This document shows positions 16,214 to 18,430 of a stretch of DNA of 64,000 nt, in pieces. Under the pieces are notes generated by a model, which made no database searches, was not told the origin of the DNA, and worked only from the letters and a program-made list of their open reading frames with translations. The position numbers and the translations under genes are program-made. The DNA is from Candidatus Caccopulliclostridium gallistercoris (GTDB lineage: Bacteria > Bacillota > Clostridia > Christensenellales > UBA1242), in NCBI GenBank assembly GCA_018713725.1, contig DVOJ01000012.1:1225-65224 (forward strand), in the 5' to 3' direction. Positions within the stretch are counted from its first letter, which is position 1; every line of letters starts with the position of its first letter.

Positions 16214-18430
16214 TTGGAATACGTTACAGTACTAATTTTAGCAGGTTTAATTTTTTTATCTATGTTTTTGCTTATTAGAAAGTTCCCAAATAAGCAAAGT
16301 TTAATATATAAAATTTTTGTATTACTTCTTATTGTATTTTTTGCAGTAAGAATTATTTTTGCCGACGCCTTCGATAGCATTTTAGCGCTAGAAACCACGC
16401 TATTTTCTAAACCTATGACGGCATTTTTAGCTATTCTTAGGTGGTTCAGCTTTACTGCAATAACGTTAACATGTTTGTCTGCGTTTACAAAAGCTAAATC
16501 TTATAAACATATTGTAGCGTTTATTTCTCTATTTTTCTTTGTACTAAATTTAATATTCTTTAAACAAAATGTAGTAGCCTTTGTGGGCACGCCAGAAGTA
16601 AGTTTCTTCCATTATAGAAATATACTTTTCATGTTTGAATTAGGAATACTTGGCGGAATTTCAGCTTACGAGCTTTTTAATATTATAAAGAATAAGGAAC
16701 TTCCAACAAAAAAACAGGTTGGAATAATGTTCTTAGTTTATGGAGCGGTAACAATAGGTTGTTTTCCACTTTCCACTTTCCAAGTTCTATTCGGCTTTTT
16801 TGGAACGGCACTTGAAGACTTTAATTTATCGCACAGAATGTTCTTATATGCCATGTTCTTAACACTTGCAATACTTTTTATTGTGTTCAGAAAGAAGGAC
16901 GACGCCACAAAGAAAACAATGCTTCTAACGGCAAGCACAAACTGCTTACTACTATTTTGCTACCACTGGAATGTGCTTGCGTTCTCTTATTCCGACCTTC
17001 CGCTGCACCTTTGTAATACCGCTGTATTTTTAATTTTTATAGCCTTTGCCTTTAACTTAAAAAGCGTTTACTATTTCACATATTTTGTTAACGTTGTGGG
17101 TTCTTTCTTTGCGCTTTCTATGCCAGACACAACTGCAACACTATTTTCTTATTTCGGCATACACTTTTGGTTTACGCATGCATATGTGCTAATACTTCCA
17201 ATACTTGCCATGATGTTAGGGCTCTATAAACGCCCAACCTTTAAATATATGCGAAATGCAATTTTCATATTTACGGGCTACTTTATTGCCATGGTAATTG
17301 CTAACGCTTGGATAAACACCTTTGCTTCCGTTGACTACTTCTTCCTATACGGCGACGTTATTTCAAATTATATTGGCTTCCTTGAAGATATCAGGTTAAA
17401 CTTCCAGTGGTTAATAAACATTGGTGGAACATTATACAGAGTTTATTGGCTATACGATATTTTAGTTTACATTGGCTACGTTGGCATAATGTTTGTAATT
17501 TGGGGACTATATAAACTTTCTTATAACGTCGAAGACCACTATAAAGAGTTATTCAAACTAAGAAAGATAGATAAACTTAACATAGCTAAACTAAAACGCG
17601 AAATGGGCGACGTAACAAAGCCTATAAATCCAGAAGGAGTAGATATGATTAAAATAACAAACTTTTCTAAAACCTATGGCTTAAACAAGCATAAAGCAGT
17701 GGACAACTTTAACCTTGAAATTCACGAAGGCGAAGTGTTTGGTTTCCTAGGTCACAATGGTGCAGGTAAATCCACGCTTATAAAGTGTATGGTTGGCATA
17801 CAGAGCATAACAGAAGGCAACATTGAAATTTGCGGCTTTGATATAGAAAAACAACCCCTTCAAGCAAAACTACAAATGGGTTATGTTTCCGATAATCACG
17901 CAGTTTACGAAAACCTAACGGGCAGGGAATATATCAACTACGTTGCAGATCTCTATATGGTATCCAAAGAAGATAGAGACGAAAGGTTAGAAAAATATAC
18001 CAAAATGTTCCAACTTGAAGAAGCCATAGACAATCAAATTAAAAGTTATAGCCATGGTATGAAGCAAAAGCTTGTAGTTATTGCTGCTCTTATTCACAAT
18101 CCAAAAGTTTGGATTCTCGACGAACCGCTTACTGGGCTAGATCCAAGTAGTGCTTATCAAATTAAAGAGTGTATGCGTGAACATGCGAGCAATGGTAACA
18201 TTGTATTCTTTTCTAGTCACGTAATTGAAGTAGTGGAAAAAATTTGCGATAGAATAGCTATAATTCAAAAGGGTGTGCTTCAAGGCGTGTTTGATGTTAA
18301 AAAACTAACAGATGCCGGCGTAGATTTAGAAGATTTATATTTAAGCTTTGTGGAAAACCAGAAAGATAAGAACGAAGAAGAGTTAAAGAAAGTTCAAAAA
18401 CTTGCTTTTGAAATTCAAAATAAAAAATAG
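16214..18430 (+). CDS. Fusion protein: N-terminal polytopic membrane domain (YwaF/TMEM164-like, TIGR02206-type) plus C-terminal ABC ATPase
   Basis: 738 aa with a TTG start 7 nt after GAAGGTG. The [11 protein letters not shown] motif sits in the membrane half. The C-terminal half has Walker [10 protein letters not shown], signature YSHGMKQK and Walker B WILDEP. Confidence 0.8.
17634..17647 (+). promoter_or_regulatory. Internal SD plus in-frame ATG at the membrane/ATPase domain boundary
   Basis: AAGGAG (17634-17639), 5 nt, then ATG 17645 (codon 478), which begins [12 protein letters not shown], a typical ABC ATPase N-terminus. Confidence 0.4.

Follow-up and report, generated by a model that had tools for sequence, protein, structure and literature searches.

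The locus examined here raises two questions: whether a single long gene that joins a membrane protein to an ATP-binding cassette (ABC) ATPase is a genuine fusion of two genes, and whether the start codon found at its joint still serves to make a free ATPase. The gene lies at positions 16214–18430 of a 64,000-nucleotide stretch of contig DVOJ01000012.1 from Candidatus Caccopulliclostridium gallistercoris, referred to below as the window; coordinates are those of the window, and features are on the + strand unless stated otherwise. It begins with a TTG codon and encodes 738 amino acids (aa), in which a long TMEM164/YwaF-type membrane module precedes an ABC ATPase, as seen from translation, Pfam matches and an AlphaFold2 model. 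An earlier note, made from the letters of the window alone, had described this open reading frame and proposed that two adjacent genes were fused by loss of a stop codon and that the locus may still produce both a fusion and a free ATPase. Translation bears out the frame, and comparison with relatives shows the gene to be a real, ancient fusion of single origin. The internal Shine-Dalgarno (SD) sequence and ATG at the joint look functional rather than fossil, judging from their conservation, relocation and codon bias across the family.

Architecture of the fusion protein

An SD-like sequence, GAAGGTG (16200–16206), lies 7 nt 5' of the TTG and forms an anti-SD duplex of -6.1 kcal/mol; homologues share this start position (MEY...). 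The first 200 residues (16214–16813) form an N-terminal extension with six predicted transmembrane (TM) helices, which span residues 2–182 in the model. The extension has no Pfam match and is kept in fused, split and orphan relatives. An internal duplication of the membrane module was ruled out, as hhalign gave a probability of 1.7% for residues 1–200 against residues 201–476.

The extension is followed by the TMEM164 core (PF14808; residues 203–388, 16820–17377), which scores 77.8 bits (E 1.1e-21) against a gathering cut-off of 25 bits. The NCBIfam model TIGR02206, named 'TMEM164-related integral membrane acyltransferase' (YwaF/TP0381), matches residues 202–369 with 52.7 bits (E 3.3e-14), under its curated cut-off of 75 bits. 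The earlier placement of this half in the YwaF/TMEM164 family is thus upheld by PF14808 and not by TIGR02206, and on its profile scores the N-terminal half is a distinct long subfamily, related to TIGR02206 yet under its cut-off. The same note spoke of a family of unknown function; TMEM164 is a Cys/His transacylase, so the biochemistry of the family is no longer blank. The genome itself holds two more short PF14808 paralogues (G000:C5:22675-23322 and G000:C8:35009-35653; open frames of 327 and 251 aa, 56.5 and 53.6 bits), which makes three TMEM164-type genes in total in 1.12 Mb.

Residues 441–477 (17534–17644) form a cytoplasmic stalk and linker that end in K-P-I-N-P-E-G-V-D, where Pro470 is nearly invariant among homologues. 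The note had called this segment a basic linker. A linker region does exist, but it is predicted to be the cytoplasmic continuation of the last TM helix (residues 412–464 in the AlphaFold2 model).

The ABC ATPase domain, which is also the candidate free ATPase, begins at Met478 (17645–18427) and was identified by Pfam and by structure match. PF00005 matches residues 497–639 of the fusion, and the best profile scores of this half are with DrrA and ABC-2-type models. Walker A (513–521), the signature YSHGMKQK (612–619), Walker B VWILDEP with the catalytic Glu (632–638) and the H-loop His669 (SSH) are complete in the fusion and invariant in homologues, so that the ATPase is indeed whole, as had been noted. 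The fused family carries YSHGMKQK in place of LSGGQ. At the position of the Q-loop Gln (residues 556–566, about 17879–17911) it has VSDNH or VPDHY, and Asp560 does not vary. In structure searches the ATPase half is matched best by EcsA of EcsAB (9a6w_B; E 4.9e-18, TM-score 0.90, 29% identity). EcsA has a similar signature, S-x-G-M-K-Q-K. The locus differs from EcsAB in that there is no EcsB-type partner and the permease belongs to a different family.

Conservation and distribution

A survey of domain architecture among homologues, as the earlier note had suggested, was made by a search with the N-terminal half. It recovered 64 protein clusters of 570–857 aa, every one with both PF14808 and PF00005, down to 26% identity. 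The nearest cluster holds 65 members, mostly of 738 aa, from independent NCBI, ENA and Logan assemblies, and the open frame is intact in 4 other genomes of the genus. In the taxonomic family, 70 of 151 genomes, which span dozens of genera, carry the N module, mostly fused and mostly in open frames of 720–920 aa; the 16 genomes searched from other families in the order all lacked it. When the 477-aa module was compared with 1.84 billion representatives, only 233 proteins matched it over its whole length, a mix of fused (~700–830 aa) and stand-alone (~450–500 aa) forms. These proteins are annotated publicly as 'YwaF family protein' or 'ATP-binding cassette domain-containing protein'.

Such a distribution bears directly on the possibility that the frame is open only through an error of assembly or sequencing, or through a mutation in one strain that took away a stop between two genes. 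Split versions of the gene do occur in related genomes, as this possibility would have it; however, the 738-aa frame recurs in the 65-member cluster of independent assemblies, in the four further genomes of the genus and across dozens of genera, with the linker conserved in frame. Since frames of the same length are present in five genomes of the genus and in that cluster, the fusion is not an error; sequencing error and recent stop loss were both rejected on the conservation of the frame, and we regard an artefact as having a negligible chance of being the explanation.

Two proteins in the 95%-identity cluster of P0002 (P0224 and P0225, one of them on a 19.5-kb contig) are called as 485 aa, starting at residue 254; the 5' third of the gene may be disrupted in some strains, or the start may have been called differently. 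In eight genomes of the family (G019, G042, G046, G061, G117, G139, G158, G163) a fused copy coexists with a second long YwaF-type gene, which lies in a split operon (G042, G158) or is an orphan with no ABC genes nearby. There are eight such orphan loci (L215–L217, L220, L221, L223–L225).

The ATPase half is a member of a very widespread two-gene cassette, in which a stand-alone ATPase of 240 aa with the YSHGMKQK signature is followed by a ~540-aa permease homologous to the one downstream of the fusion (18439–20043). A metagenome scan returned stand-alone ATPases only.

Origin of the fusion

Related genomes were also checked for split versions of the gene, and five split operons were found, with the gene order of the fused loci: a long YwaF-type gene, the ATPase, and the permease. 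Four of them (L218, L219, L222, L226) come from four genomes of the window's own family. The fifth (L009), in an Anaeroplasmataceae metagenome-assembled genome, consists of a 512-aa YwaF-type gene, a TAG stop, 14 nt that include AGGAAGGGA, and a 245-aa ATPase gene; it continues with a 544-aa permease and a 967-aa protein with immunoglobulin (Ig) domains.

The fused genes all group in a single clade of the ATPase tree (support 100/99), the split operons are its sister (98/82), and the two clades together are nested among stand-alone ATPases. The fused modules likewise form one clade (100/99) in the N-module tree, with the same two subclades as in the ATPase tree; the split and orphan modules lie on the opposite side from the fused clade.

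The junction of split operon L219 indicates how the two frames became one. It reads Y-E-D-TAG-GAC-GAG-GTA-CAT-ATG, with the stop, the 12-nt SD spacer and the ATG all in frame. Without its stop this junction gives the linker x-D-E-V-H-M, which may be compared with L-E-G-V-H-M in the fused gene L177 and P-E-G-V-D-M in the window. The last linker codons of the fusion match what in the split relatives is the end of the upstream protein, the stop and the SD spacer, and a single mutation of the stop in L219 would recreate the fused linker.

The trees are concordant and the L219 junction keeps a single frame, so the stop-loss fusion of neighbouring genes that was first proposed from the window alone holds, as one ancient event. 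The upstream ancestor was a gene for a long (13-TM) TMEM164/YwaF-type membrane protein and the downstream ancestor that for the ATPase of a two-gene ABC-2 exporter. Loss of the stop between them created one reading frame, and the old SD spacer turned into the last codons of the linker.

The probable internal start at the joint

The joint carries an SD sequence, AAGGAG (17634–17639), with an anti-SD duplex of -8.8 kcal/mol, a 5-nt spacer, TAGAT (17640–17644), and an ATG (17645–17647). As (17645-16214)/3 = 477, the ATG is in frame and encodes Met478, so the arrangement described in the earlier note is correct to the nucleotide. A product started there would have 261 aa, and its N-terminus, MIKITNF, resembles those of stand-alone ATPases (MLKITNL, MLEIKNL). 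In this genome (1.12 Mb, 35.5% GC), a duplex as strong as this one is found at 0.37% of 4102 internal in-frame ATGs and at 21% of crudely called gene starts. At the joint, it stands at proper spacing from an in-frame ATG.

Within the genus the internal SD is kept as GAGGGGG, AAGGAGG or AAGGGGGG. The underlying codons (GAA-GGA-G, GAG-GGG-G, AAG-GAG-GGT, AAG-GGG-GGT) differ by synonymous or compensatory changes, and all of them still form an SD. In L087, for example, a change from Pro to Lys gives AAGGAGG where GGA became GGT. Across the family, the median duplex is -8.8 kcal/mol in the 12 fused genes with Met at the joint and -2.95 kcal/mol in the 22 without.

Subclade II, the one other than that of the window, has its own in-frame ATG 7 codons upstream, typically in the form AAG-GAG-GAA-CCT-ATG, where 5 nt separate AAGGAGG from the ATG. 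In further lineages the SD and ATG lie at -4 (L008), -5, -6 (L001, L197) or -9 (L181) codons. Sites were counted where an in-frame ATG lay no more than 10 codons from the joint and its duplex was at least as strong as -6 kcal/mol. Of the 35 fused genes, 27 had such a site, against 14 of 1685 control windows (0.8%) of the same size elsewhere in the same genes, an enrichment of ~90-fold. Synonymous codon choice in the four codons before the ATG points in the same direction: GAG is used in 17 of 33 cases (52%) against 20% gene-wide, AAG in 7 of 16 (44%) against 19%, and GGA or GGG in 13 of 15 (87%) against 42%.

By its frequency, its relocation and its codon bias, the site is conserved beyond what the protein requires. 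Relocation and synonymous bias together argue for selection on a translation start, since neither a protein motif nor a decaying relic would predict both. We therefore consider it quite likely that the former SD and start codon have been kept by selection, and that one mRNA yields both the 738-aa fusion and a 261-aa free ATPase; to this extent the expectation that both proteins are made is supported. The search for + strand promoters found no site between 16513 and 18644 comparable in consensus to the one upstream of the operon. An internal promoter for the ATPase, with no such site upstream of 17645, was accordingly rejected, and the free ATPase would come from internal translation of the operon mRNA.

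Genes with an in-frame internal start that yields a second, shorter protein are represented by IF2 (alpha and beta), ClpB and CheA (long and short). The present gene resembles them in having an SD and ATG inside the open reading frame at a domain boundary, with both isoforms presumed useful. It differs in that the internal start was retained from a once separate gene, and in that the short product is predicted to be a full ABC ATPase.

The membrane module

The AlphaFold2 model of the 738-aa protein was built from 82 sequences (predicted local distance difference test, pLDDT, 90.8; predicted template modelling score, pTM, 0.69). It has thirteen membrane helices, six of them in the N-terminal extension and the rest with the TMEM164 core. 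An outer segment contains a beta-hairpin (399–410), and one continuous helix (412–464) exits the membrane as a stalk toward the ATPase, which starts at residue 478. The K/R-rich loops at 21–29, 90–94, 160–165, 226–229 and 335–342 all lie on the nucleotide-binding-domain side of the model.

Two residues stand out as a candidate active site. Cys267 (codon 17012–17014), in LPLHLCNT, part of the motif at residues 262–272, is a candidate acyl-carrying nucleophile at the outer end of helix 266–280, and His322 (codon 17177–17179), on helix 313–334 about nine residues below the outer surface, is the candidate general base of the dyad. Both are invariant in 82 fused and 17 stand-alone homologues, and so are Pro263, Asn293 and Gly296, over sequences only 26–35% identical. 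Given a cytoplasmic ATPase, the pair is predicted from the model and the positive-inside rule to lie near the outer leaflet.

Human TMEM164 is a PF14808 protein with a cryo-electron microscopy structure (9LW1) and belongs to the ATGY superfamily, together with AIG1, GPC1, YwaF and YpjA. It is a coenzyme A (CoA)-independent transacylase with an acyl-Cys123 intermediate (bioRxiv 10.1101/2022.07.06.498872; PMC12830759), and its metal ligands are His124 and Glu106. The module shares with it the Pfam match, a polytopic helical core, a Cys on core helix 2 and a His on core helix 4, at a spacing of 55 residues against 58 in TMEM164 (C123/H181). From the Pfam match, the helix positions and the spacing, rather than from a direct alignment with the human protein, Cys267 and His322 appear to correspond to C123 and H181. 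By analogy, the expected mechanism here is likewise CoA-independent transacylation via acyl-Cys. The six N-terminal helices, the outer beta-hairpin, the cytoplasmic stalk and the covalently attached ABC ATPase are extra to TMEM164.

The operon and its neighbours

A promoter-like site (ATGACT-17-TATAGT with a TG; 16154–16182), which is a consensus match only, lies upstream of the fusion gene, and a terminator-like hairpin with a 15-bp stem and a T run (23191–23224) follows the third gene; together they appear to frame a three-gene operon.

The second gene (18439–20043) encodes a 534-aa permease with 12 TM helices, probably of ABC-2/PF16949 type according to the Pfam matches of its homologues, its AlphaFold2 model and Foldseek. 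The permease of the window itself scores 16.9 bits against PF16949, for which the cut-off is 25.7, but 34 of 52 homologues match PF16949 and related ABC-2 families (best 3.9e-22). Its model has a pLDDT of 88.3 and a pTM of 0.85, and the top Foldseek matches are ABC-2-type exporters, with weak E values of 0.016–0.6. The best is 8k1p/8k1n, single-chain permeases of ~510–530 residues from a mycobacterial efflux pump, followed by NosY, Wzm, PmtCD and ABCG. A permease lies 3' of the ATPase in every locus examined, including 16 of 16 fused loci.

The third gene (20057–23179) encodes a 1040-aa, N-terminally anchored surface protein with an Ig-like domain, considered a likely client or partner on the basis of Pfam and locus comparison; Pfam finds Ig-like domains only. 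In all 16 fused loci the permease is followed by a protein of 600–1100 aa with an anchor or lipobox at its N-terminus and an Ig-like domain, often with an open reading frame of ~140 aa in between. A large downstream gene is present in only 9 of 33 unfused cassettes.

Some further observations concern this third gene. In most relatives the large surface protein is a lipoprotein (L202–L214, L218; lipoboxes such as LVAC-G and FAGC-G), while the genus of the window and its nearest relatives L200 and L201 have an anchor without Cys (AIIGSN, SVIGIN). The lipid anchor seems, from these motifs, to have been replaced by an uncleaved signal anchor in the window's genus. The small frames of ~135–180 aa between the permease and the large protein (L202, L203, L206, L208, L210, L213) match the 1040-aa protein of the window (E 1e-8 to 1e-11), and the third gene may likewise be a composite, in which a small anchored protein was joined to the large surface protein. 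A separate, conventional ABC-2 pair lies 2 kb upstream of the fusion on the - strand (12311–14148; a 305-aa ATPase and a 307-aa permease with a 4-nt overlap) and is unrelated to the fused system.

Proposed mechanism and related systems

In the explanation that we favour, the fusion and the free ATPase would come together on the 12-TM permease, which is a single chain. Such a chain, made of two six-helix halves, requires a pair of ATPase subunits, and a free ATPase would thus still be useful after the fusion. Near the outer leaflet, the Cys267/His322 dyad would transfer acyl groups independently of CoA and, in the manner of TMEM164, by way of an acyl-Cys intermediate. Hydrolysis of ATP would serve to flip, extract or present either the lipid donor or the acceptor, and the large surface protein of the operon, which most relatives make as a lipoprotein, would probably be the client or a docking partner. 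To the best explanation as a whole we assign a probability of about 0.65. The complete scheme of assembly, acyl transfer, ATP coupling and client stands at roughly even odds. More tentative, and rather doubtful at present, is the proposal of an asymmetric machine, in which an acyltransferase-bearing ATPase, a free ATPase and the 12-TM permease would drive, with ATP, the extracytoplasmic acylation or anchoring of a dedicated surface protein or lipoprotein.

A second member of the superfamily is instructive here. Bacillus subtilis LhaT (YpjA), the lipoprotein heptaprenylglyceryl N-acetyltransferase, N-acetylates lipoproteins outside the membrane from acetyl-heptaprenylglycerol, and the flipping of its donor is unexplained, with the flippase unidentified (PMC12345273). 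This integral membrane acyl transferase works on the outer face, where its donor is lipid-linked and its acceptor is a lipoprotein; besides the shared superfamily, the likeness is that most relatives of the fused operon encode a lipoprotein beside the transporter. In contrast to the fused module, LhaT is a six-helix DUF1405 protein rather than a PF14808 protein, and it is neither fused nor linked to an ABC system. The neighbouring surface protein in the present genome has no lipobox Cys, and N-acylation of a lipoprotein therefore cannot be the role in this genus.

The transporter part resembles the single-chain 12-TM ABC-2 exporters and their relatives (8k1p/8k1n, NosDFY, Wzm-Wzt, PmtCD), which give the best Foldseek matches of the permease at weak E values (0.016 and above); the permease also probably falls into PF16949 or related ABC-2 membrane families and the ATPase scores best with DrrA-type models. 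In NosDFY, too, a transporter of this kind works with a large partner protein outside the cytoplasm. None of these exporters has an enzyme domain fused to its ATPase.

Alternative explanations

The internal start could be read as a fossil. The SD and ATG at the junction would then be relics, the 738-aa fusion the sole product, and the motif would persist because the residues E/K-G-V-x-M fit the linker and the opening strand of the ATPase. The motif does descend from the true start of the pre-fusion ATPase; E-G must be encoded by GAR-GGN, which looks like an SD; Pro470 in the same linker is conserved for protein reasons; and the motif is lost in some fused genes (L003, L176, L193). Yet the Met is dispensable for the fold, as subclade II has Lys in its place, and subclade II nevertheless has a perfect AAGGAGG, 5 nt and ATG upstream. 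The site has moved several times and always within 10 codons of the joint, synonymous codons are biased to SD-forming ones, and control windows in the same genes fall ~90-fold short. A narrower form, in which Met478 and its SD are a decaying fossil of the window's subclade only, was dropped because the other subclade has its own SD and ATG 7 codons upstream. A fossil thus seems unlikely to us. Several points nevertheless weigh against the two-product reading. Between 5 and 8 fused genes (L003, L176, L193, L198 and others) have no convincing SD and ATG, so not every member needs a free ATPase; demands of the protein could explain why E/K-G is kept near the joint; and because the lineages share ancestry, the counts and P values make the cases look more independent than they are.

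It is also conceivable that the N module has lost its catalytic role. It might instead act as one more membrane anchor, regulate the transporter, or give the surface protein a platform on which to dock. Bacterial YwaF-type proteins have no known activity, the TIGR02206 score is under its cut-off, and the 200-residue N-terminal extension and the stalk have no enzymatic precedent. Moreover, His265 of the motif varies, being Gln in stand-alone relatives. Against this stands the invariance of Cys267, His322, Pro263, Asn293 and Gly296 at 26–35% identity, which is the pattern expected of an active site, and a non-catalytic role appears improbable. The acyltransferase reading has its own weak side: the substrate, the stoichiometry and the coupling of ATP hydrolysis to acyl transfer are conjecture, the surface protein of this genus is without the lipobox Cys, and searches of PDB chain sequences with the N module returned none by phmmer and nothing meaningful by profile. 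Foldseek with the whole fusion model returned ATPase chains only, a result so swamped by the ATPase that it is uninformative on the N module.

Implications

A full-text literature search found no paper describing this fusion, PF16949 or the function of bacterial YwaF. The enzyme superfamily, the transporter class and the type of internal start are each known, and their combination has not been described before in the literature searched. The covalent fusion, being conserved, is strong genomic evidence that this YwaF-type enzyme has one particular ABC-2 exporter and one particular surface protein as its working partners, and it thus shows which partners to test. Relatives of the bacterial YwaF-type proteins, human TMEM164 and Bacillus LhaT, are lipid-dependent acyl transferases, and an enzyme–transporter fusion in the superfamily of LhaT suggests how the coupling of an enzyme to a flippase can be arranged. 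The locus also provides a natural series, from split operon through a fusion that keeps the old start to a relocated internal start, which lends itself to studying how a subunit stays available on its own after its gene has been fused. If the asymmetric machine proposed above were to prove true, it would be an undescribed class of ATP-coupled envelope acylation system and would give the bacterial YwaF branch its first function.

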